A stretch of 56,486 nucleotides of DNA, counting the filler, from Jimgerdemannia flammicorona (lineage: Eukaryota), in assembly GCA_003990765.1 (NCBI GenBank). It is 3 parts of 3 records of this genome, joined end to end, with 100 filler letters (N's around TTAATTAATTAA, not from the genome) between each part and the next. Parts side by side here need not be neighbours in the genome. Positions count along the whole stretch, not along the records: positions 1 to 18,768 come from RBNJ01002119.1; 2 more parts are not named here. One strand, 5' to 3'. A model generated the notes under the pieces. It was not told where the DNA came from. It did no database searches and worked only from the letters and a program-made list of their open reading frames with translations. The position numbers and the translations under genes are program-made. This document shows positions 2,736-37,735 of the stretch, in pieces (position 1 is the stretch's first letter; each line of letters begins with the position of its first letter).

Positions 2736-5603
2736 TTACGACCTCTTGATAACAAGAGGGGGCGAGAGCCACTTGACCCAGTCCTTGGGCTTTTTGGCAT
2801 CACCGAACACCTTGAGGGCGCTCACGCTGATGTAGTAGACACCATTGGGAACGGGCACAGGGGCAATGCGACCCTTGGGAGTTACGTAGCCTGTCCAGGC
2901 CCAGGTGTAGTTCTGGGAAAGGCCCTGAATGTTGTCGATGGTGTTGCGGGCGAGGAAGTTGACTGGGCTGCCGTAGGTGGGATTGAAGGGCAAGGAACCG
3001 AGAACGGTCTTGGAGCGTGGGTTGATGATATCGAGCTTGACGTGCGCAGTACCGGTCAGGAGGCGGAGCACGACTTTGGGGTAGTCGGTGCCGGCCAGGG
3101 TGTAGGTAACCTTGGTCTTAGGCTTGACAAGGGAGCCGTCGGTGTTCTGGATCACGGGGTAGTCCTTGTCGAAGAGCGGCAGGTCGTGCATGTTGCCCAC
3201 CATGCCAATGTACGGCACGTGGATCGGCTTCTGGTCGGCGTCAAGCGGCTTCACAACCAAGTACCCGCCGTAGATCAGGTGGTCGGTGAGGTTGGCCTTA
3301 GGAGGGAAGACGCTCACCTGCACCTTGACGCTCTTGCCCGGCTTGAGCGTCACAAACTTTTCGGAGAACTTGACCTTCGCGGCCGCGGGGTCGTAGCTTC
3401 CGGGCTCGACGGGCGTGAAGCCCGACTTGGCCACGTCGTAGCCGGCACCGGCGGCGGAGGGAAGGTGGTCGAAGTGGAAGATCGTCTGCTTCTTTCCCCT
3501 GTTGGTGATCGTGATCGTCTTGGTCCGGACGTGGTGAGCGGTGTCGTTGAAGCTCAGCTCAGCGGGGCTAACGTGCGCGGTACCTTTGATGGCGTCGAGA
3601 ACTTGGATCAGACCGGCGCCCTGGTGGATCGGGTTGTCGGTGAAGTTGGTGCCGTAGATCAGCGCGGGCTTGGCGTAGTTCTGGAAGATCTCGGTCACCG
3701 TCTCGGGGTCGTGCTTCTGGCCACGGGCTTCAAGGAGCAGAGCAATCGAGCCAGCAATGTAGGGGGAGGCCATCGACGTGCCGGAGTAGGTGCCGTAGCC
3801 ACCAAGGTAACCAGGGAGGGTCGAGTAAACGTTGCCACCGATACCACCAAGGTTGGGCTTCAGCTGAAGCTCGTTAGTCGGACCCCAGCTGGAGAAGTCG
3901 GAGACGGTGCCGGCGGTGGGGATTGAGCCCAGGACGACGTCCTTGCCAAAGGTGATCTTGGGGCCCTTGCTGAGGGTGATGGAGATTTTGACACCATCAG
4001 CGTTGGCGATACAAACCACAGGGATTTTGATGGTGGCGTCGGTGGACACGGCGATCGGCGCTTGGCCGTCCTTGGTGTAGATGATCACACCGACAGCGCC
4101 GGCGTTCTGGGCGTTGGTCACCTTGGTGAGGAAAGCGCAGGTACCGCGTTTGATCAGGGCAATCTTGCCCTTGATGTCCTTAGTGATGGCGTTGCAACCG
4201 TCATCTTCAACGGCAGTGGTGTTGGAGACGGCGACGAGAGGAACGTCGGCCAGAGCAGGAGGATCGCCGTCCGTGAGATAACCAATAACTTCGCCAGGCA
4301 AAGTTGAGACGGTCAGAATGTTCATGACGAGGGCAAGGTTGTCGAAAGACGCGGCAGCAATCACGCGGCGACCGGTGCCAGGAGCGGAGGCGGCCAGGAT
4401 ACCGCCAGCGCCGTCGTTACCTTGAGCAATGACGACTGTTTGGTGGAAGGATAGAGGAAATGTTTAGATGATTGAAATTTAAAGAACAGGGATGCGTAGA
4501 TTTGGACGACGCCAAAGGAAAGTTTTACTTACGGCTCCTGCCAAGGCCGACGAGCTTATCGGCGAAGATGGATCCCGGATCCTCTTCCCAAGCACTGCCA
4601 CCACCAAGAGACAAGTTGATGACGTCCATGCCGGCCTTGTAGGCCATTTCCAAGGCCTTGATGATGATGTCGTTGGGAGTGGAGCCTTTGCAACCAAAGA
4701 CACGCCACATACCAAGAGTGGCTTGGGGAGCAACACCGAGGAACCCCTACGAGAATGTGGCATAGAAGTTTGTGTAAGTGACCGATTGCACAAGATATTT
4801 GTGACATGACAAAAATTTAAGATATGTACCTTGGCCGTGTCGTTACCAGCAATGATACCAGAGACGTGCGTGCCGTGGCCCTCACTGCCCTTGCCGCATT
4901 TGTCCAGCGGATCGTCATCGGGGTGCAGGGTGCTTGCGTGGACACCATCGAAAGCGTCACCAACAAGATCATAACCATACGCGACCTTGTGGCCAGGACC
5001 GAAAGCGCCACCAAGAGCGGGATGTGTGTAATCGATACCAGAGTCAATCACCCCGACCTTGATGCCCTTGCCATAGTAACCGAGGACACTGTGCACCTTG
5101 TTCACCTCGGTCAGGTTGTGAGCGAAGTACTATAATGTAGCCGCGATGATATTAGACTACTGTTTGCACTGCGACTGCAAGTCAACCACCGTAATGTATG
5201 AATGAAGTATGCGTACCAAATCGGGTTTGTTGTTGCGGGTCTCGACCTTGATGACCTCAGGACGCTTATAGTTGAAGATGGGCCAGACATTGGCGACATT
5301 GGGGTCGTTGATGATATCGTGCAGAGCATTCTCGGTCTGCACAGTAATAGAAATCCCACTGAAGACTTCGGTCTCGTACTTCTGGCGAACGGCCACGCTG
5401 TGTCCCTTGGCGCCCAGCGTGGACACGAAGCTCCTGTACCTACTGGTCTTGACCACGGTGTTGGTGTTCGTGAACTCGACGATGTATCCGCCGCGGAGGG
5501 GCTCGTCGTCGACCGAGCGTTTCGTGCGCGGATGGAATTTACCGGCTTCGACGAGGGTACTGCAGAGCAGACCCAGTGTAAGGAGTGATGCCGCGAATTT
5601 CAT
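2736..5603 (-). CDS. Secreted subtilisin-like S8 serine peptidase with prodomain, PA domain and Fn3-like C-terminal domain; 4 exons (5603-5217, 5129-4830, 4746-4533, 4435-2736)
   Basis: Signal peptide MKFAASLLTLGLLC; catalytic motifs VIDSGIDYTHP, GHGTHVSGII, SGTSMASP; PA domain KIALIKRGTC; three GT-AG introns join the ORF pieces in frame. Confidence 0.95.
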
Positions 5604-7456
5604 TGTGAAGAGGTAGAAGAGGCAAAAGGGTCAATTGCTTTCTACCACAAGAATGAGTGTTGGTTGACTGAGGGAAAATCTGCTGGGTCTTGGATGGCCT
5701 TTTTATATTGTGGTCATGGCGCCTTGTCGTCCATTCGGGCAGGTCTAGATGTGGCGCGGCCCTTTAATTTGCGAAGCCCAAGAAACTTTGCTCGATATGG
5801 AACCTACGGCAGGGACCAAAGTGGTATGCACCCGGTTCAGAAGGAGACTGTCGTACTTGCATCGGCTACTTTTACTAGGAAAATTGACCCATTCCCCTTG
5901 CATAGCCGAACGTCGGAGTGGACAGCCGTCTACAGGCCGTGGGTGTGCATACAATTTTTCTAACAGTTATACGAGTTTGCAGAATTATTCATAAATGTTG
6001 GATGTTGGTAATAACTACAGATTGCAAGACGTCATTGCGCAATTCCGTGAATTTACGCATCCTACCACACTGGGCAGCAATTTCCGTTTAGGTGGACGCG
6101 TTCCGAAGGCCGAGGTCTGGTGGTGACACAAATTTCACTTCCTGCATCGACCGATATGCAGGAATGTTCTGCGGTTTCAAAGGAGAGACATGTGCCGAGG
6201 CGTTGAAGAACCCCCCGCGTATGCACCATCTCAAAGAATAAAGACTAGGTTGAAAATTTGCATGGAAACCTTTCAGAGAACATCCCCTAGAGTAAATCTT
6301 GACTACCTCGTCCCAAAATGCTCACATGCACCAACTCGAAAAAATCCCAAAGACGGAATCGACAAATCCGAAGCATTCAAAAACCGTGATCGGTTCAGGA
6401 TGCAGTTGCCTTTTTGGGGGCAATAATCCGTCAAGCCTGTAGGTAGGTAACACTGTAGGGTTTAATATGATATGAGTAATTAGGCGATCTTCCTTTTTGA
6501 CGGCACGACAATGATCAAAGAGACATACGCGCCGTATATATCAAGTTGTGCCGTCGGTACTCCCATACCCGGTCAACCGTTGGTTTTGTCTAGAATACAC
6601 GAAATATTCTCGATGGACCTTTCGGCGACAACGCAATTTCGAATAACATTTCTAATGTCATTGATTTATTGATGGCGACAAAATCCTTGTTCACGAGCAT
6701 ACATGGTTCTTTTACAACAACAAATTCAACATGCTGGTATAGGTTTTTATGACGGAGAGCCTGGGTATGTTTCAAGAACTGGGTTCCTTGGGTGCGGCAT
6801 TCGGGATTTATTTTTTTGCATGCGAAGTTACGTTACATGGCCTTGGAGATCTTTTGGCTCTGGACACTGGAGGATAATCACAGCGTGGGAATTCTGGAGA
6901 CACTCGCGTGTCAAATGCCAACCCTGAAGTTTGAGCACGCTTCCTGGATTTCCACATGCTGGCATTGAGTCGAGGCCGGTAAACATTGCGTCTACAGCAT
7001 TATAACCCGCCCCACCGCGGAACTTGCCGTCCGAAACCCATGAAGGAAAACTCGTAAATTTTCCTTGATTGGCTATCCCGCAATGGCCTCATGATGCGCG
7101 CACGTGACGCGCTTGTTCGTTATGCCGAGTCTCTACACCGGGATTGCTTCTCCGAATATAGATAATCTTTTGAACGGCTTCGCTTTTTGCGGTTGTGCTC
7201 AGCCCTGATGCTTTTGCATTGATATTGCCACTACCGCTATTGGCAACGGAATAAACCCTTGGTAATGTTACATAAGATTTATGCACTTTTTTTTTTGGCC
7301 TAACCGTCGTTTACCATAGTTGTCCAAATTTTTAATATAATAGTTATTCCTTAGTTTGTAGCATAGAAATCTATTGGCTGTGGTTTTGACGTCACCGCCA
7401 GGCACACTTTCCTTTTGCGTTTTTCGCGTTTTGTCACCTCAAACCTCAAACAAAAC

Positions 7457-8989
7457 ATGGAAGGTCAGTCACTTTTCTAGTTTTATGCGAATGTATTTAT
7501 TATATATGTGAGTGGTAAGTCTAGTGTTGAGTGAAGCATGTATGCAAGCACGGTATGTAAGCAGGGCAGAGTGAAGTACTTTGAGCAAGCCTGGTGCGTC
7601 GGACCTCCTCGACATCATAAATATTTTGGAGTTCACAAGCCTTGAAAGAGCCCTAGTTTGCCCAGTGCTCACCATTCCTTCGTGGAAGTGCACCTTTTGT
7701 CACCATCACATCACACTATCACCCTTCCTTCGTGGGAGCGCAATATATAAGTTTTGTCTTTGAATTATATAATCACAGGAACCTCGGCCCAAGTCCGTTA
7801 TCCTTGTTGTGGAAAATCGGACCATTCTGTCTTCTTTGGAGGCGATGTCAAAGGTTACAGATATACCGTGTTTGACGATTGGCTTCGGACCGTTTCTCCA
7901 GTTGATTTCGTTCATATTGTTAAAAAGCCGCAAAATGGGTAAGTACAAATGCTTATTTGTTTGTCTGCGGTTCGTTCAAACTTCAGCTAATGTTCATAAA
8001 AAAAATGTTAGGTACGGGCACGTCCATTTCGCTACTCATGATGAAGCAAGCCGCTTCTATTGTTTTACGTTAGAAAACAAAATCGTCGGGCCCGATGGCA
8101 GTTACGTCAAGTTCAAAGCTTCGCATTTCATTTCGGGAGAAAAGGTTGAATATGAAAGGGTAGGTTCCTTCGGCGAAATGTTTGGCAAGTGGATCAATGG
8201 AATATCTAATATATCTGATGCTCTGCCTTTAGCAGATTGAAACCTACCCAAACAAAAAACCGAGATCAGAGAATAATACGATGGTCGGTTATCCTTTTCT
8301 ATACTTACCTCGAAATCCAACTGCGTACCAATTTGTCACGTGCCTCACAGCTCGAAACCCAACCACGCACCAACTTGCCGCGTGCCTCTAGCTCGAAACC
8401 CAACTGCGCGTCATCTCGCCACCTGAAGAAACAATCGAGGTTGAATATGGTGTTTATGAAGACAGGTTTGTGGCCTTCCAATCTAGGCCATATCCTGATT
8501 TAGGAGATGGTTGAACAACGGCACAAATGCGAAATCCGGACCTATGCATGATTCTCACCAGCACATCTAATATTATATTTTTCTCCTTTCTATCAAAGCA
8601 AATTATACACTCTAGTCGTACGGACACCAGGTGTCAAAAGTGAAGATGAAATTGAACTCCTCATTGCCGATGAGAATGACGATCAGATAGTATCTGTCAG
8701 CGGGTGGTTAGGATACGGAGATATACCCCCAGGCAGATGTATTATAAATCAACTGCAGTCAGGGCCATTCCAGCTTGATATTAAGCTCCCGAGCAAGTAA
8801 GTTACGGAAGATATGAAAAGTTGGCTGCTTTTTAATTTATGATTATTTGCAACTGCTGATGTCTTTTTTAAATTAAATAGAATTGACATAGCATCCAATG
8901 CCAATGTCAAAGTGGAACATGGTGTGACGACCATAACCTTGCAGAAGATGCCAACTCAAACGAACAAAAAATTTCTCATCATTGGATAG
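7457..8989 (+). CDS. Multi-exon gene: N-terminal RRM fused to C-terminal HSP20/alpha-crystallin-like domain (copy A)
   Basis: Spliced translation gives RNP2-like HSVFFGG and RNP1-like NGYGHVHF (intron 7939-8011). It continues VYEDSKLYTLVVRTPGVKSEDEIELLIADENDDQIVSVSG...GPFQLDIKLPSK|IDIASNANVKVEHGVTTITLQK, matching the alpha-crystallin pattern. Stop at 8987-8989. First exon and linker exons are uncertain. Confidence 0.7.
8309..8410 (+). repeat. 41-42 bp tandem repeat, about 2.5 copies
   Basis: CTCGAAA(T/C)CCAAC... units start at 8309, 8351 and 8392. Confidence 0.8.
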
Positions 8990-9180
8990 AAACGGAGCTA
9001 CGGAAAGCCTTGTACAAAGAGTAAAGAAATGCAGTTTCTCGGGCATACAGTGTTGATTCCGGCAGAGAGGTCTATGGAGGCAAGAGAATTGTTATTGTAA
9101 ATAGCAAATAAATCTTGTCATATGTCGAAAATCCCTCCGCGTCATTAGTGATTATGAACAAGCCTGCTTCTCCAACGGGA

Positions 9181-9515
9181 ATGTGGTTACCGGATGTGAA
9201 CAAGATAGTTACTAATGATATTGCGGCTGTGCTGGGGGCCTATGGTAAGTGAACTGAGGCCCTACCCACGAGGCTCTCCCACAAGCTAACATATTATCCG
9301 TTATATTTTCACTTCCATTCCAGATGTGGAAGCCGGGCGTGCTGCCCATATGAAAGAGATGCTGAGCGTGTTTGAAGTCTATGACATTGATGTTGATCTG
9401 CGACATTTGACACTCATTGCTGATTATATGGTTAGCACATATCGAATAACACGGTGAATCGTATGCGAGTTTGTACTGCTGCGATTGTAACCGTACGGGC
9501 ATCGAGGCCAGTGTG
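9181..9515 (+). pseudogene. RPA1: Isolated fragment of RNA polymerase I largest subunit (C-terminal region), with introns
   Basis: DVNKIVTNDIAAVLGAY|intron 9245-9323|DVEAGRAAHMKEMLSVFEVYDIDVDLRHLTLIADYM|GT...CNRTGIEASV matches the conserved NDI...YGVEAAR...VD.RHL.LIAD.M...FNR.G motif of RPA190-type subunits. No other part of the gene is present. Confidence 0.8.
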
Positions 9516-18768: not shown

Positions 18769-18868
18769 NNNNNNNNNNNNNNNNNNNNNNNNNNNNNNNN
18801 NNNNNNNNNNNNTTAATTAATTAANNNNNNNNNNNNNNNNNNNNNNNNNNNNNNNNNNNNNNNNNNNN
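18769..18868. other. Artificial contig join (44N + TTAATTAATTAA + 44N)
   Basis: N run with a six-frame-stop linker at 18813-18824. Confidence 0.97.
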
Positions 18869-31067: not shown

Positions 31068-33867
31068 ATGAACGCCAGCGACCCATACTCGATCCACATC
31101 ACGCGCGAGATTGACCCCCTCCCACGCATCCCGCTCCTACCAACCGACAGCGTCACACTGGGCAGCCTCTTGGGCCAAGGCGGCTTCGGACGCGTGTACC
31201 GCGGCACGCTGCGTGGAATGACCGTAGCAGTGAAGCTCATGTCCGCCCCGCGGCTGTCCACCGAGGTGGAACGTGTGGTGCAGAACGAGCTCGGGCTGCT
31301 GGTCCGGCTTCGACACTGCAACTTTGTTGTACAGGTTCTCGGGTACTACCGCACCGATGACAGCACTGTCGCCATCGTGCTCTCGTCGCGGAGAGGGGCG
31401 ATGTAAGGGAGTTCCTAGGCGCGGGGGGCCTGAGGGGGGATTGGTCCACCAAGGTGACGAATGGTCGACATTATTGATTTATGAGCGTGTAACGCCGGCT
31501 CGGGTGGTTGCGAAGAACTATAGCTGACGGTGTCTTTGGACGGGGCGACTGTTTTCTGACAACATAGGCACGGATCTGTGGAGATATTGCCAAGGCGGTG
31601 GAATTTGTTCATGCCGAAGGAATTATTCATGGTGATTTGAAGGCGACGAACATCTTGCTGGATCGCTTCCTCACACCGAAGGTAGGTTGTCCGTCCGCTT
31701 GTTTTCTGTGATTGATAGGACAAGCGGCATCGATAACAATGAGACTTTTTATTGCCAGATTACCGATTTTGGGATCAGCAGAGCCTTCACCACCCTCATC
31801 GGAGGTTCATAACCCAGCTTCACCCTCCGATACGTTGCGCCAGAGCGCTTACGGCATCCCGACAAGCGATTCACCCACCAGGAGTCCGTCTTGAGTGACA
31901 TCTATGGGTATGGCTTGATTGTGTGGGAGGTCGCGACTGACGGAATGCAACCATACGCGGGAATGAACGACATGACGCTCAATATCGCCAAGATCAGCGA
32001 CGAGATCAGCGACGACAACCAGCTCCAATATGTTGGTGACCTCCCCGACGACACGCCCCAGGTCTTCCGCGACATTGTGTGCCAGTGCCTGTCGGTGGAT
32101 CCAACTCTCCGCCCATCCCTCGCATCCGTCCAGAATACCCTCGACGCGTACATGGCCACCGCGCCGGCCCCACGGGCGCTCTATGAAGTCGACTCCATGG
32201 GACTGGCGCCAGCGGCGGCCGCAAGTGATTCTGGGTGGCTCCCGACAAGTCCAACGGTGCCGAGTGCGGACATCGGCGTCAATGAACTCAGCACGCTGTC
32301 CAGGCAACAGAGGGAGGCCTTTGGGGTCGCCATGTACTATTACCAGGAAGGCAAGCTGGTTCAAGCCATGGAGTACTTCCAGGTACCCGAGTTGCGAGAC
32401 CACTCGATTACTCTACGAATGCTGGGTCACTGCCACATCGCTGCTGGGAATGATCCCGTGGAGGCGTTCCAGTGCTTCAAAAGATCGAGCGAGGGGGGCG
32501 ACGCCAAAGGGCAACTTGCGCTCGCCTGGTGCTTTGACAACCGATACGGGACCTGGAAGGATCTTGCGTCAGCATTCGAGTGGTATGTCTCGAGGCAGCG
32601 GCCGAGCTTCGGAAACCGAGGTGGTTGGAGCATCTATTGGAGACCTTTGGCGACCAGAGTGCAGGCAATTCCGCTTTGGACTGGCTTTCCAAGGTCTTCA
32701 TGCCGAATGAGTCGGAGGTTCTCGCAAAAACGCTCCTGGAATCCGTCAGGTCGGGAAATATTCGTGCTCGGAGGCTTTTCGCGTTACTATACTACTCTGG
32801 AAAACTTGATGGGATTCACGAAGGCCTCGAGATTCACACAAATGATAAGCTCTTCTTAGGGCTCGTCGAATACAGTATCGTTGGGAACAAGGAGGCACAA
32901 TCCGAAGTCCACCGCCTCATTAAAGCCTCTCCACCCGATGTCGCCGCTCACCTCCCTGAAGCCTTCCAACTACTTCTAGAGGCAGCAACGGCATGATCAG
33001 CTTTTTGCCAGTGTCAAATTGGCCGGTGCTATTATTTTGGCGCTGGCGTCGATCAAGACGACAAGAGATCCTTTAGCTGGTGTAATTTTGTTGCGCAATT
33101 CAACTTATCTTGCCTGCACACGGGTGGCAGGGGTACTGACAAGAATCTGAAGGAGGCCTTCTATTGGTGCGAGAAGGCCGCCGAAGCTGGGTCTTTACTG
33201 GCGCAAATGGGGCTCAGTTGGATGTACATGAATGGTGCGGGCATTGAGAAGGACCCTGATGCGGCATTCCAGTGGTTTTCGAGGGCAGCACAAGCTGGGA
33301 ACGCTAACGCCCAGAACTCGCTCGGTTACTGCTATTTTGCCGGGGTCGAGGTTGACCAGGACTATGGAATGGCAGCGAGGTGGTACCTTCGGGCTGCAGA
33401 GGCCGGGAGCTTGCAAGGAATGAAAAACATTGGCGTCTGCTACATTTCTGGCAGGGGCGCCAAGGCGGACGTCGCGGCGGCTTTCAGGTGGTTCTCCAAG
33501 GCCGCCAGCGCGGGGTACAGCGACACCCAGTGTAATCTCGCATTTTGCTATATTACTAAGCGGGACGTGGACACCGGAATTTGGTGGCTTCGGAAGTACG
33601 CCATGGGGCCCTGAGGCCGCCCTAGAGGTATTTAAGAACGCCGATAACGATGGATTTGTCAACAAAGGTCACTTGATGGAAGCATATTTACTGTTAGAAA
33701 AAGTGATAAAGGAAGGTGGAGTTGCCGCGGGATGGAATCCGCCAAAGGTGCAGCCAAAAGTGCCGCCAAATGAGATGACAAAGGAGATAACAAAGGAGCT
33801 GTCTCAGACCACCGACCTCAGCGTCAAGACTCGGCAGAACTGGTTCTCGAAACTCGTGCGGAAGTGA
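31068..33867 (+). pseudogene. TKL-type protein kinase with C-terminal Sel1-like repeats, disrupted
   Basis: LGQGGFGRVY, VAVK, HGDLKATNILL, ITDFG, YVAPE, SDIYGYG; Sel1 units AFQWFSRAAQAGNANAQNSLGYCY and ARWYLRAAEAG. Frameshifts near 31385 and 32590, in-frame stops near 32995 and 33613. Confidence 0.85.
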
Positions 33868-34974
33868 CGCCCGTGTCCTTTTGGCTCACGCGACAGGCGC
33901 AATATTCGTGGCAGTGATGTGTTGGCGAACGCGGCGAGATATTGGACGTTGGGCTTTGAGGTGCTGTTCTGGCTAGCCCCGTTGTTATCCAGTGGATATT
34001 GCTGGTATGCAATGTGGATACAATGCGACCCGCACTAACGAGGGAGATTGCGGGTCATATTTTGGGCTGTATTCAACACCATTACGGTGATTGTGGTTGG
34101 GAGTGGATAATTGGTCAAAGCTGTCCCGATAAATATCAAGGGTTGGGCATTTTGATATTTGTTCAATTATAGACAATAAACCCATTATATGGCGCGATGT
34201 GGAGGTGCGGATTGATGATTGCCGGATTCGTCGGCCAACAACTATTCATATCTATGCCATTCTTTTGGGGCATTACCGTGATCGACAACTAGTTTTGAAT
34301 ATGGTTCTCGTGATAAACGATCTTTTTCTAGTATGGTCAACTATCATGAGGACGGGGTGACGTCAGTGCGTTGGTGGGCAAGATCAAGATAAATGACAGA
34401 TCAAGATAACGTTCTCACCTCAATCCCAAATCGGATCGGCTCACCTCCGAAAAAGTTGAATCGAAGTGGCTTAGCATAAGTATACTGACGCAGCTCATTT
34501 GGTTTTCGCAACTATACCTTTGCAAACGTCTAGTCCCTATTTCAGACTCTGTGTCTGCTGTTTTGCGCATCCTGAGCCACGTTCTTTCCTTTTCGCGTTC
34601 TCGCTTTACTTTTCGCATCCTTGCCTTATTTCGTGTTCTCTCACCTTACTTTTCCTTACTTTTCATGTTCTCACCTTGCATTTCGCATTCTTGTGTTCCT
34701 GCCTTACATTTCACATTTCCACATTCTCTTAAACACCCGACTTTTACTTTCGAGGGTGAGTAGCTCCCTAATGCAGAATTCGTATCTGTTGTTTTGTTTA
34801 ATTGTGACCTGAGCCATGCATTCCCATCTGTATTTCTCGCATTCTTGTCTTATATTTCCGTATTCTTGCCTTACATTTTAGGCACGTGAACAAACCTTCC
34901 TCGAAGTAAAACTCTTACTTTGCTTTTGCATTTCGCATCTTCGTGTTCCATCTGTATAGACCAAGGAAGTATTA

Positions 34975-35320
34975 CCAGGTTTGTAGCGCCATCGGTATGA
35001 TAATCGTTTGGTTGCCACCGGTGATGGACTGGTAACCTTCTTTCCTTAAATGTGGATCAGAATTACTTGTCTATGGCATCTTGCCTTTCCTTCAATGTGG
35101 ATTGGGGTGCTCTTAGTATCTTGCCTTTCCTTTATATTTGCCGAGTTTGTAGCGCCATCGGTGTGGCATCGTATTATGATTGCTACCGGTAACGGACTTG
35201 TAACTTTCCTTTAATGTGGATTGGGGTTACTTGTCTATGGTATCTTGCCTTTCCTTCAATGTGGATTGGGATACTTGTCTAGTATCCTGTCTTTCCTTAA
35301 ATGTAGATTGGGGGTACTTG
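34975..35320. repeat. Degenerate local tandem duplications
   Basis: GTTTGTAGCGCCATCGGT occurs twice; TCTTGCCTTTCCTTCAATGTGGATTGGG-like units occur several times. Confidence 0.7.
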
Positions 35321-35366
35321 TCCTACTTACGTATAATGGATTTTTATTTCCTTTATACATACAGAT

Positions 35367-35747
35367 ATGTCATCCAAATATAAACCGTTTATTCTCTGTG
35401 GGAATCCTCGTTATTCAGTATATATTGCTGGAGATCTATCCAATACTACTCACAACGACATCGAGGCATGGCTCCGAACAAAAATTTCGTTGAGTTTTTT
35501 TTTACACATATTGAAGTTTTCCAATAACTCGTAAGTATTGGTAATAGGTTGTCTATGCCAATATATAGTCATGTTCAATTTTCTTACGATCTTGATATTT
35601 TATAGCTACGGCCACGCCCATTTCAATACTGAAGAAAAGGCCGGACCCTTCTACCCCAGTATGGGTGATAGGGCCTTCCAAGGGCCGAATGGAGGAGTTG
35701 TATATTTCAACTCATCAACAGCTTTGGGCGTCACTACACAATACAGG

Positions 35748-35824
<77 letters not shown>

Positions 35825-36680
35825 ATATCTTTTACTTAAATTAACATTTTCTTTTCACATCTTCTTTAACACTTTTTATTTCCTTTGGTCTCCAGCTACC
35901 TCAAGTAGATCACACAACCTAAGGGGCAGACGCCCAACAAGCAAAAGTAGGTCGCGCAGAGATGGAAGCAGGTCACAGCCCAACAGACAGAACCAGGTCG
36001 CGCAGCCTAACAGGCAGAAGCAGGTCACATAGCCCAACAGGCAGAACCAGGTCGCGCAGCCCAACATGCAGAAGTAAATCACGCACAACAGGCAGAAGCA
36101 GGTCATGCAGTCCAACAGGTGGATCCGACATCTGTCAGGCGCAAGAAAGAGTACTTGCCTGAAAATCGAGATGGCTGTACAATTTTTGAAACTGGGTTTG
36201 TATAGAGTTTGTGTAAATGATTGTGCATATTATCTTTGCTGCGTGCGTATATTAAATAACACATTTTTATTCTTTTACCATAGTGATACATTCACTATTG
36301 TGGTGTCTACCCCGGGTGTAACTCAGAAGGATCATGTCGAGATTGCCGTTGATGGCAACGATGACAACCTTATCATCTCTGGCGACGTGACGGGTATATT
36401 CCAGAATATCTCTGGCACAGTGGTTATGAACAATATGCCAGATAAGGTTGAAAATCATGTGTCACTTCCGACGAGGTAAGTAAAATAAAATTACGTAAAA
36501 TATTACGAAGTATTGGTTCACAAATGTTTCCAAGTTTTTTTATTTTTATTTTATTTTTTTATATACTTTAGGATAGATTCAGAAGGCTCTATTCAGACTG
36601 AAGTCGCAAACGGTCTAACGAAGATCACTGTCAACAAGATCAAGATGCGTCCTCAGAAAATTTTAAAACAGAAGTGCTAA
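35367..36680 (+). pseudogene. RRM + HSP20/alpha-crystallin fusion gene, copy B (two in-frame TAA and a 2-bp deletion in the repeat linker)
   Basis: YSVYIAGD...WLRT...HILKFSNNS|YGHAHFNTEEKA..FY...GPNGGVVYFNSS and IFETG|DTFTIVVSTPGVTQKDHVEIAVDG...LIISG...HVSLPTR|IDSEGSIQTEVANGLTKITVNK. Intron positions match copy A. Confidence 0.7.
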
Positions 36681-37635: not shown

Positions 37636-37735
37636 NNNNNNNNNNNNNNNNNNNNNNNNNNNNNNNNNNNNNNNNNNNNTTAATTAATTAANNNNNNNNN
37701 NNNNNNNNNNNNNNNNNNNNNNNNNNNNNNNNNNN
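37636..37735. other. Artificial contig join (44N + TTAATTAATTAA + 44N)
   Basis: N run with linker at 37680-37691. Confidence 0.97.

Follow-up and report, generated by a model that had tools for sequence, protein, structure and literature searches.

Evidence for an RRM-type domain fused to an alpha-crystallin domain in a family of small heat-shock proteins from Jimgerdemannia flammicorona and Glomeromycotina

Small heat-shock proteins (sHSPs) consist of an alpha-crystallin domain (ACD) with a disordered arm on either side, of which the N-terminal one serves to capture clients and to tune the oligomers. A locus of the fungus Jimgerdemannia flammicorona raises the question of whether a folded RNA recognition motif (RRM) can stand at the position of that arm. 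The locus, called copy 1 here, occupies positions 7457 to 8989 on the plus strand of a 56,486-nt stretch of genome assembly GCA_003990765.1; this whole stretch is the window, and all coordinates refer to it. An earlier reading of the bare DNA (the original prediction) proposed that, after removal of GT-AG introns, copy 1 encodes an RRM, a variable linker, and an ACD. The motifs on which it relied, SVFFGG, NGYGHVHF, and YVKFKAS followed in exons 5 to 7 by VYEDSKLYTLVVRTPGV, VSVSG, GPFQLDIKLPSKID, and VKVEHGVTTITLQK, are all present on the plus strand of the locus, and the architecture is supported by RNA contigs, by profile searches against the PDB, and by fold comparison of two relatives, P0006 and P0001. 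We regard the RRM-ACD architecture as a real and previously undescribed form of sHSP.

Copy 1 reads as seven exons separated by six introns, all GT..AG, and its conceptual product of 248 residues holds every motif named above (Table 1). The ribonucleoprotein motif 1 (RNP1) sequence NGYGHVHF is interrupted by intron 2 directly before the Tyr, at the exon 2/3 junction, and the ACD pattern runs in the order EVEYGVYEDSKLYTLVVRTPGVKSEDE, VSVSG, GPFQLDIKLPSKID, and VKVEHGVTTITLQK before a KKFLIIG tail. Three RNA contigs were compared with the genome over positions 7300 to 9100: X1 (1,386 nt) and X2 (1,082 nt), which carry the same organism label (A) and come from two separate studies, and X3 (300 nt), from a soil metatranscriptome. 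Introns 2 to 6 are removed from both X1 and X2 exactly at their GT..AG boundaries. X3 covers the 3' end alone, without the 5' exons, and shows only the last intron joint, with no mismatches. Intron 3 ends with the acceptor TAG at 8230 to 8232, which makes exon 4 51 nt long. X1 spans 7435 to beyond 9100 and joins RRM-type and ACD-type exons on one contig; from exon 2 to the stop codon TAG at 8987 to 8989 it is a single open frame without a break, and the frame of exons 2 to 7 is intact across 241 codons. Both domains are therefore carried on one mRNA in one frame, not on separate mRNAs, as had been predicted. Copy 1 is a transcribed, multi-intron fungal gene.

A tblastn search with the copy 1 model located a paralogue, copy 2, elsewhere in the window. 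Its joined exons give a product identical to P0001 (262 amino acids [aa]), which is labeled a hypothetical protein of J. flammicorona at NCBI and an "SHSP domain-containing protein" in UniRef. The two copies have four intron positions and phases in common: before Y-G-H, after ..Y-(E)-R, before the x-x-[FY]-T-[IL]-V-V strand, and after L-P-[ST]-[KR]. The spliced copy 1 product aligns over residues 5 to 247 with P0006 (29% identity; pairwise E value of 4e-38 in a small subject set) and with P0008, P0009, and P0001 at pairwise E values of 1e-31 to 5e-26 in the same kind of small set. These full-length alignments, together with the common introns, indicate that the pattern of copy 1 is not due to chance.

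The C-terminal domain is supported by sequence profiles and predicted models as an ACD like those of fungal sHSPs, among which Hsp26 and Schizosaccharomyces pombe Hsp16 (SpHsp16) come nearest. Searched against the PDB, the family profile matched Hsp26 (E value, 3.4e-8), SpHsp16 (9.4e-7), and about 20 further sHSP entries of plant, archaeal, and bacterial origin; its C-terminal region matched solved sHSPs only and no CS proteins, and the exon 6 profile alone reached Hsp26 at 0.0067. P0006 scored 34.7 bits against Pfam HSP20 (PF00011), above the cut-off of 20.8 bits. In the AlphaFold models of P0006 and P0001 (mean predicted local distance difference test [pLDDT] values of 79.9 and 64.5, respectively), the C-terminal domain is a seven- or eight-strand sandwich, and the top Foldseek matches were all sHSPs, with SpHsp16 the best at 3e-7. 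Fold comparison with VIA aligned the P0006 model with an sHSP ACD at Z 12.3 (root-mean-square deviation [rmsd], 2.2; 96 residues aligned) and the P0001 model at Z 10.7 (rmsd, 2.9; 95 aligned), the latter in a tie with 4rzk_B (rmsd, 2.0; 80 aligned). sHSP ACDs ranked first for both models, and CS/p23 domains ranked just below. The CS/p23-type domains (Shq1, Sgt1, p23, and PIH1D1) have the same beta-sandwich superfold, with Z values of 9 to 10.5 against the C-terminal domain; however, the family profiles match only sHSPs, and sHSP structures outrank CS domains in both fold searches.

Hsp26 (PDB 7oa6) and SpHsp16 (PDB 3w1z) are the best matches of this domain in both sequence and fold. The family has in common with fungal sHSPs the PGV-K-x-[ED], VSG, and LP..ID...NG[VIL]T pattern, a short C-terminal hydrophobic tail, a size of 230 to 330 aa, and a predicted beta6/beta2 strand-exchange dimer. 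For two copies of P0006 residues 118 to 230, the predicted dimer had an ipSAE score of 0.73, compared with 0.00 for the best of three controls, with at least 98% contact agreement between runs and a partner pLDDT of at least 83; residues 126 to 132 lie against residues 175 to 183 of the partner. The ipSAE mark is reached by 21 of 30 microbial solved pairs and by none of 23 solved single chains, among eukaryotes, 17 of 29 pairs reach it, but just 1 of the 7 that lack an older solved relative does. Because sHSP dimers have already been solved, the score may reflect memory or likeness rather than binding, and the sHSP-style ACD dimer is a model-based prediction. The C-terminal anchoring motif of sHSPs is I-x-I/V; the tails found here (KKFLIIG in copy 1 and KFLNIL, RFLNLL, KILKQK, and KILKRS) conserve K-[FI]-L and not a strict I-x-I. 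In the family alignment, L, V, N, or H stands where the sHSP motif F-x-R-x-x-x-L-P has its Arg. Another departure from Hsp26 and Hsp16 lies in the N terminus, where the family has a folded RRM-type domain and a repeat linker instead of a disordered arm or the Hsp26 middle domain.

The N-terminal domain, of about 85 aa, is supported by profile searches and predicted models as a divergent RRM-fold domain. A profile of seven sequences, in which exons 2 and 3 of copy 1 were included as fragments, returned 26 rows from the PDB, and the best 14 were all RRM proteins, among them nucleolin (E value, 1.4e-5), Pub1 (2.4e-5), PABP1 (0.0073), TIA-1 (0.0081), and SF3B4 (0.013). The remaining rows were six EVH1 domains near an E value of 0.8 and six more RRM proteins. 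The exon 3 profile alone matched no RRM in the PDB and gave just weak rows for SUMO2 and Nup116. DSSP assigned a beta-alpha-beta-beta-alpha-beta order to the domain in the AlphaFold models, where its pLDDT is above 90 in P0006 and 75 to 82 in P0001. Among the top 50 rows of VIA, which works independently of Foldseek, 21 for P0006 and 22 for P0001 fell on the N-terminal domain, and all of them were RRMs, including U2AF65 RRM1 (Z 9.3 and 8.9; rmsd, 1.9), PSF (Z 9.3), Hsh49, U1-70K, and nucleolin. These Z values of 8 to 9 are just moderately above the stated VIA background of 7 to 8; the assignment is firm because all N-domain rows are RRMs and the sequence matches are independent. Both folds that the original prediction expected, an RRM (Z up to 9.3) and an ACD beta-sandwich, were thus recovered in the models of these relatives.

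Compared with the canonical RRMs of PABP1 (RRM2), Pub1, nucleolin, TIA-1, SF3B4/Hsh49, and U2AF65 (RRM1), the domain has the same fold, with Z values of 8 to 9.3 and an rmsd of about 2 Å over 73 to 78 residues. In the stretch from RNP1 to alpha2, the family sequence YG[HF]VHF..eDA aligns with YGFVHF of PABP1, and RNP1 position 3 is aromatic in both. The RNP2 consensus of canonical RRMs is [ILV]-[FY]-[ILV]-x-N-L, whereas that of the family is V-[LYF]-[VIF]-[AG]-G. Unlike canonical RRMs, the family also has a conserved CCG motif before beta1, the ACD fusion, a His at the fifth position of RNP1, and neither Lys nor Arg at position 1. The His at the usual aromatic position had been predicted for both copies and is found in both (YGHVHF in copy 1 and YGHAHF in copy 2). 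Across the family alignment RNP1 reads [NSGC]-x-[YW]-G-[HF]-[VA]-H-F, in which position 3 is Tyr or Trp and position 5 is His, with Phe only in P0008. Positions 3, 5, and 7 are among the best conserved of the N-terminal domain, and in canonical RRM geometry they face the RNA-binding side. The conservation of these predicted solvent-facing beta3 residues (Y/W, H/F, and H) suggests a ligand-binding face, whose ligand would most likely be single-stranded RNA or a ribonucleoprotein (RNP) client.

Several observations weigh against the reading of copy 1 as a working RRM-ACD fusion. Most members score poorly in Pfam. For HSP20, P0001 and P0003 (both 20.2 bits) and P0010 (20.3 bits) fall just below the cut-off, P0008 (18.8 bits), P0004 (15.6 bits), and P0011 (13.5 bits) score lower still, and P0009 has no match; in this the family also differs from fungal sHSPs. 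For RRM_1 (PF00076; cut-off, 20.7 bits), the isolated N-terminal domain of P0008 scores 20.7 bits, exactly at the cut-off, while full-length P0008 (18.6 bits), P0011 (13.8 bits), and the isolated N-terminal domain of P0009 (13.3 bits) are below it, and P0006, P0001, and P0004 have no match. Five single exons of copy 1, run against Pfam, gave chance-level rows only and neither an RRM nor an HSP20 match, and the fold of copy 1 is taken from relatives at about 29% identity. In the putative RNA-binding motifs, RNP1 position 1 is not basic, position 5 carries His instead of the usual aromatic residue, and RNP2 position 2 is Phe or Tyr in the Jimgerdemannia copies but Leu in those of Glomeromycotina; the N-terminal domain has a net charge of only -1 to +6. 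A heat-shock-element-like pattern (TTCNNGAANNTTC, with at most one mismatch) is absent from the regions upstream of copy 1 (7000 to 7456) and copy 2 (34900 to 35366), another difference from fungal sHSPs; the pattern gave 18 matches, compared with 18.97 expected. The upstream regions of the two copies have no common stretch longer than 13 nt.

One alternative explanation is that a fast-evolving, lineage-specific protein resembles an RRM and an ACD by chance. The failure of single copy 1 exons in Pfam fits this explanation, as does an ESM Atlas look-up of exon 6, which had low recognition (2148, with the mark at 2300) and pointed to unrelated beta-sandwich families (CarboxypepD_reg-type, 0.88 to 0.90), an uninformative result. 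The independent profile matches, the HSP20 score of P0006 above its cut-off, and the matching of both folds in two models argue strongly the other way, and chance resemblance is extremely improbable.

A second explanation accepts both folds and proposes that the N-terminal domain has kept the RRM fold and lost RNA binding, serving as a protein-protein or oligomerization module or as a metal or redox site, so that the protein would be an ordinary holdase with a folded arm. Many RRM-fold domains, such as UHMs, bind proteins instead of RNA, and the degenerate RNP motifs, the nearly neutral charge, and the mostly subthreshold RRM_1 scores described above speak for such a loss. A metal site could be formed by an invariant Cys before beta1, the His in beta2, and the His at RNP1 position 7, with the position 5 His in all members but P0008. 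However, the most conserved residues (Y/W, H, and H at RNP1 positions 3, 5, and 7) lie on the canonical RNA face, by the geometry of canonical RRMs; in sequence, the nearest matches are RRMs that bind RNA (PABP1 RRM2 with its YGFVHF, Pub1, and nucleolin); and His can stack on bases. We consider loss of RNA binding unlikely, though it retains an appreciable chance, and favor an RRM that binds RNA or an RNP client. The Cys/His set itself is an observation apart: the Cys before beta1, the beta2 His, and the RNP1 position 7 His are invariant in the family, the set corresponds to C15, H50, H61, and H63 of P0006, and its counterparts lie in exons 2 and 3 of copy 1. By their sequence conservation, these residues may form a metal or redox site on the face of the RRM sheet.

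The start of the copy 1 protein is the least secure part of the gene model. The prediction of GT-AG splicing held exactly for five introns; the first intron is kept in both RNA contigs that cover it (X1 and X2), and the start codon of the original prediction depends on its removal. In the unspliced RNA, ATG 7457 opens a 7-codon upstream open reading frame and is followed by six more upstream ATGs, seven in total. Without the splice, the frame of exon 2 runs back to a TAA at 7748 to 7750, there is no in-frame ATG in the genomic sequence between this TAA and position 8281, and the first in-frame ATG is thus at 8281. The last 60 nt of intron 1 contain no CTRAY branch motif; the confirmed intron 4 likewise has none. 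These facts count against a full-length copy 1 product, which by the sequence requires removal of 7464 to 7778 through a putative splice. On the other hand, no AUG precedes ATG 7457 in the transcript, its context is strong, and a GT donor lies 7 nt on; the splice would give an N terminus as long as those of copy 2 and P0004; and the similarity of copy 1 to distant orthologues starts at residue 5, upstream of any alternative start. Another candidate start, ATG 7538 with a GTATGT donor, was rejected for its wrong phase. RNA contigs drop rare isoforms, so a minor or conditional intron 1-spliced form may exist, and the splice may be inefficient or regulated. The start at ATG 7457 is therefore putative and unproven, resting on an intron that the RNA contigs keep.

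X1 has a 25-nt insertion after 7717, a length that is not a multiple of three, which indicates that the stretch from 7464 to 7778 is noncoding there. The same region holds a short repeat at 7690 to 7745 (..CCTTCCTTCGTGG..), of which X1 has one extra 25-nt unit, and X1 also carries T>C at 7609; both differences indicate that the leader region varies between strains.

A third explanation is that copy 1 makes no fusion at all: its transcripts would keep the leader intron, leaving the RRM exons with no start codon, and the locus would be a decaying paralogue or encode an ACD-only protein from ATG 8281, with the fusion left to copy 2 and the other paralogues. X1 and X2 keep 7464 to 7778 while removing all five other introns, the unspliced leader carries its seven upstream ATGs, neither protein library searched contains a copy 1 protein, and P0003 is a public gene model consisting of linker and ACD only. 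Against this stand the intact 241-codon frame of exons 2 to 7, the orthologue alignment from residue 5, the first-AUG position and context of ATG 7457 with its nearby donor, the N-terminal length in common with copy 2 and P0004, and the loss of rare isoforms from contigs. A copy 1 without a fusion product is improbable, and we continue to read copy 1 as an RRM-ACD gene whose first intron may be spliced at low levels or conditionally.

The relatives define a small lineage-specific family of Endogonales and Glomeromycotina, as supported by sequence searches and as the original prediction had proposed. A HMMER search of 1.84 billion representatives with the exon 6 alignment (E ≤ 1e-3) gave seven matches, of which P0001, P0003, P0004, P0006, and P0007 are family proteins or fragments; the other two, P0002 (5,455 aa) and P0005 (3,726 aa), are giant repetitive proteins that match an acidic stretch only (profile positions 14 to 43) and were rejected. 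Two profile searches of a 5.8-billion collection (four and seven matches) added P0008, P0009, and P0011 to P0015. The source names comprise eight species: J. flammicorona (Endogonales), Glomus cerebriforme, Ambispora leptoticha, Ambispora gerdemannii, Rhizophagus clarus, Rhizophagus irregularis, Funneliformis mosseae, and Funneliformis caledonium. Both domains occur together in copy 1, P0001/P0010, P0004, P0006, P0008, P0009, and P0011 of the family alignment, so that the two-domain layout is present in Jimgerdemannia, Glomus, Ambispora, and Rhizophagus. No members were found outside Endogonales and Glomeromycotina in these searches, which depended on shared words or on the ACD exon only and are too limited to prove absence. 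Among metagenome contigs, the exon 6 alignment gave 97 pattern matches, none of which was confirmed by tblastn.

Public annotation captures little of this family. Most relatives are labeled in UniRef only as "SHSP domain-containing protein," and since the public names give at most the SHSP domain, the RRM is unannotated in the family. No copy 1 protein was found in the two protein libraries searched (29 candidates by exon 6, none scoring, and the seven HMMER matches), so the copy 1 gene itself seems unannotated. P0003, P0007, and P0012 to P0015 are partial or apparently faulty gene models; in the faulty ones, a WD40 fragment is attached to P0012, RNP1 is absent from P0014, and the TPGV strand is absent from P0013. 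The family is probably under-annotated in Glomeromycotina genomes. In keeping with the earlier statement that no characterized RRM-sHSP fusion is known, no description of one was found in the open-access literature, a search whose scope ended short of subscription papers and InterPro architecture tables; five family locus tags are not named in open-access full text, and a paper on kinetoplastid ACD proteins contains none of the RRM-fusion terms probed.

The linker is short and of low complexity, and its predicted variability is evident between paralogues, which differ in linker length and repeats. Linkers of the family range from about 29 to 120 residues, are built of lineage-specific tandem repeats, and are predicted to be disordered; in the AlphaFold model of P0001, linker residues 93 to 154 have a pLDDT of about 30. 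In copy 1, a 42-bp tandem repeat at 8309 to 8404 (2.3 copies, 83% matches) straddles the boundary of intron 4 and exon 5. The first two units each terminate in AG and are removed with the intron, and the third supplies the opening codons of exon 5; read in another frame, the intronic units would give similar peptides. This arrangement points to a repeat that was once coding or to an acceptor that slides. The linker intron of copy 2, at 35748 to 36013, contains a poly(T) run of about 85 nt followed by tandem repeats of about 27 nt, which read as an Arg/Ser-rich peptide in another frame, and the public P0001 model takes the AEAGH.. frame from the acceptor at 36013.

Table 1. Positions of the parts of copy 1 and of copy 2 in the window
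Feature	Coordinates	Strand	Evidence
Copy 1, 5' leader	7435..7456	+	X1 start at 7435
Copy 1, putative exon 1, ATG plus 4 nt; first AUG of the transcript, context CAAAACATGG	7457..7463	+	inferred
Copy 1, putative intron 1, 315 nt, GTCAGT..CACAG, phase 1	7464..7778	+	retained in both covering RNA contigs
Copy 1, exon 2: conserved CCG motif, RRM beta1 (SVFFGG), alpha1 (..DDWLRT), beta2 (FVHIVKK)	7779..7938	+	
Copy 1, intron 2, 73 nt, phase 2; position and phase match copy 2	7939..8011	+	RNA contigs
Copy 1, exon 3: RNP1 (YGHVHF), alpha2, GP loop, beta4 (YVKFKAS)	8012..8159	+	
Copy 1, intron 3, 73 nt, phase 0	8160..8232	+	RNA contigs
Copy 1, exon 4, 51 nt, linker; final codon is the in-frame ATG 8281-8283	8233..8283	+	RNA contigs
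Copy 1, intron 4, 108 nt, phase 0; contains 42-bp repeat units 1 and 2	8284..8391	+	RNA contigs
Copy 1, exon 5: linker end and first ACD strand (EVEYGVYED)	8392..8465	+	RNA contigs
Copy 1, intron 5, 133 nt, GTTTGT donor, phase 2; common to copy 2	8466..8598	+	RNA contigs
Copy 1, exon 6: ACD core (KLYTLVVRTPGVKSEDE..VSVSG..GPFQLDIKLPSK)	8599..8796	+	RNA contigs
Copy 1, intron 6, 84 nt, phase 2; common to copy 2	8797..8880	+	3/3 RNA runs
Copy 1, exon 7, coding part: last ACD strands (VKVEHGVTTITLQK), tail KKFLIIG, TAG 8987-8989	8881..8989	+	RNA contigs
Copy 1, 3' untranslated region, at least to 9075 (X2); X1 continues past 9100	8990..9100	+	RNA contigs
Copy 2; exons 35367-35530, 35606-35747, 36014-36195, 36284-36475, 36572-36680	35367..36680	+	tblastn of copy 1 model, joined exons

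The window consists of three pieces of about 18.75 kb, separated at 18769 to 18868 and 37636 to 37735 by spacers of 44 N, TTAATTAATTAA, and 44 N. Copies 1 and 2 sit on different contigs, and the window implies no linkage between them. Directly downstream of copy 1, at 9154 to 9460 on the plus strand, a short spliced open reading frame has a second exon that matches Rpb1 domain 5 (PF04998, 28.8 bits with a cut-off of 28.5) and seems to be an isolated fragment of an RNA polymerase largest-subunit gene; X1 reaches beyond 9100 in its direction. Elsewhere, a protein-kinase catalytic domain followed by Sel1 repeats (Sel1 E value, 8.7e-43) is encoded at 31813 to 33611 on the plus strand, and a subtilase (Peptidase_S8) with an inserted PA domain and an Fn3-like domain, in at least two exons, at 2739 to 5129 on the minus strand.

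Taken as a whole, the sequence and model evidence makes it probable, in our judgment, that the RRM-ACD fusion acts as a multivalent RNA or RNP tether or holdase, with copy 1 possibly gated by its intron. The ACD would form the dimer typical of non-metazoan sHSPs, each subunit placing its beta6 loop against beta2 of its partner, and dimers may be joined into oligomers through the K-[FI]-L tail at the C terminus. With the folded RRM replacing the disordered client-binding arm, such an oligomer would display several RRMs on flexible linkers, and their conserved beta3 faces would bind the ligand, for which single-stranded RNA or an RNP client is the likeliest candidate. In that case the particle would be a multivalent, ATP-independent tether or holdase for RNA-protein assemblies, and copy 1 would possibly be gated posttranscriptionally through removal of the 5' intron at 7464 to 7778. 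A bolder version is speculative and, as a complete account, rather doubtful: RNA-tethered sHSP particles would hold or store messenger RNPs, for example, in stressed hyphae or dormant spores, would be confined to plant-symbiotic Mucoromycota (Glomeromycotina and Endogonales), and would include a copy 1 gated by a 5' intron laden with upstream open reading frames and a ligand binding that is possibly metal or redox dependent through the Cys/His set.

The family appears to be limited to two mycorrhizal fungal lineages, in which lineage-specific stress and RNA biology are poorly known. The nearest theme in the literature is a functional meeting of ACD and RRM in a study of HspB8 and FUS, according to which the HspB8 ACD mediates interactions that stop the hardening of FUS condensates driven by RRM misfolding (PMC8510580). 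There the two domains belong to separate proteins and the RRM is the client, whereas in the present family they form one polypeptide. The family would be a test case for an ACD-RRM interplay that is so far known only from work in trans, HspB8 and FUS being an example. As a natural family with a folded RRM-type domain at the position of the arm, it would also provide a test of whether an sHSP scaffold can be directed to RNA or RNPs.

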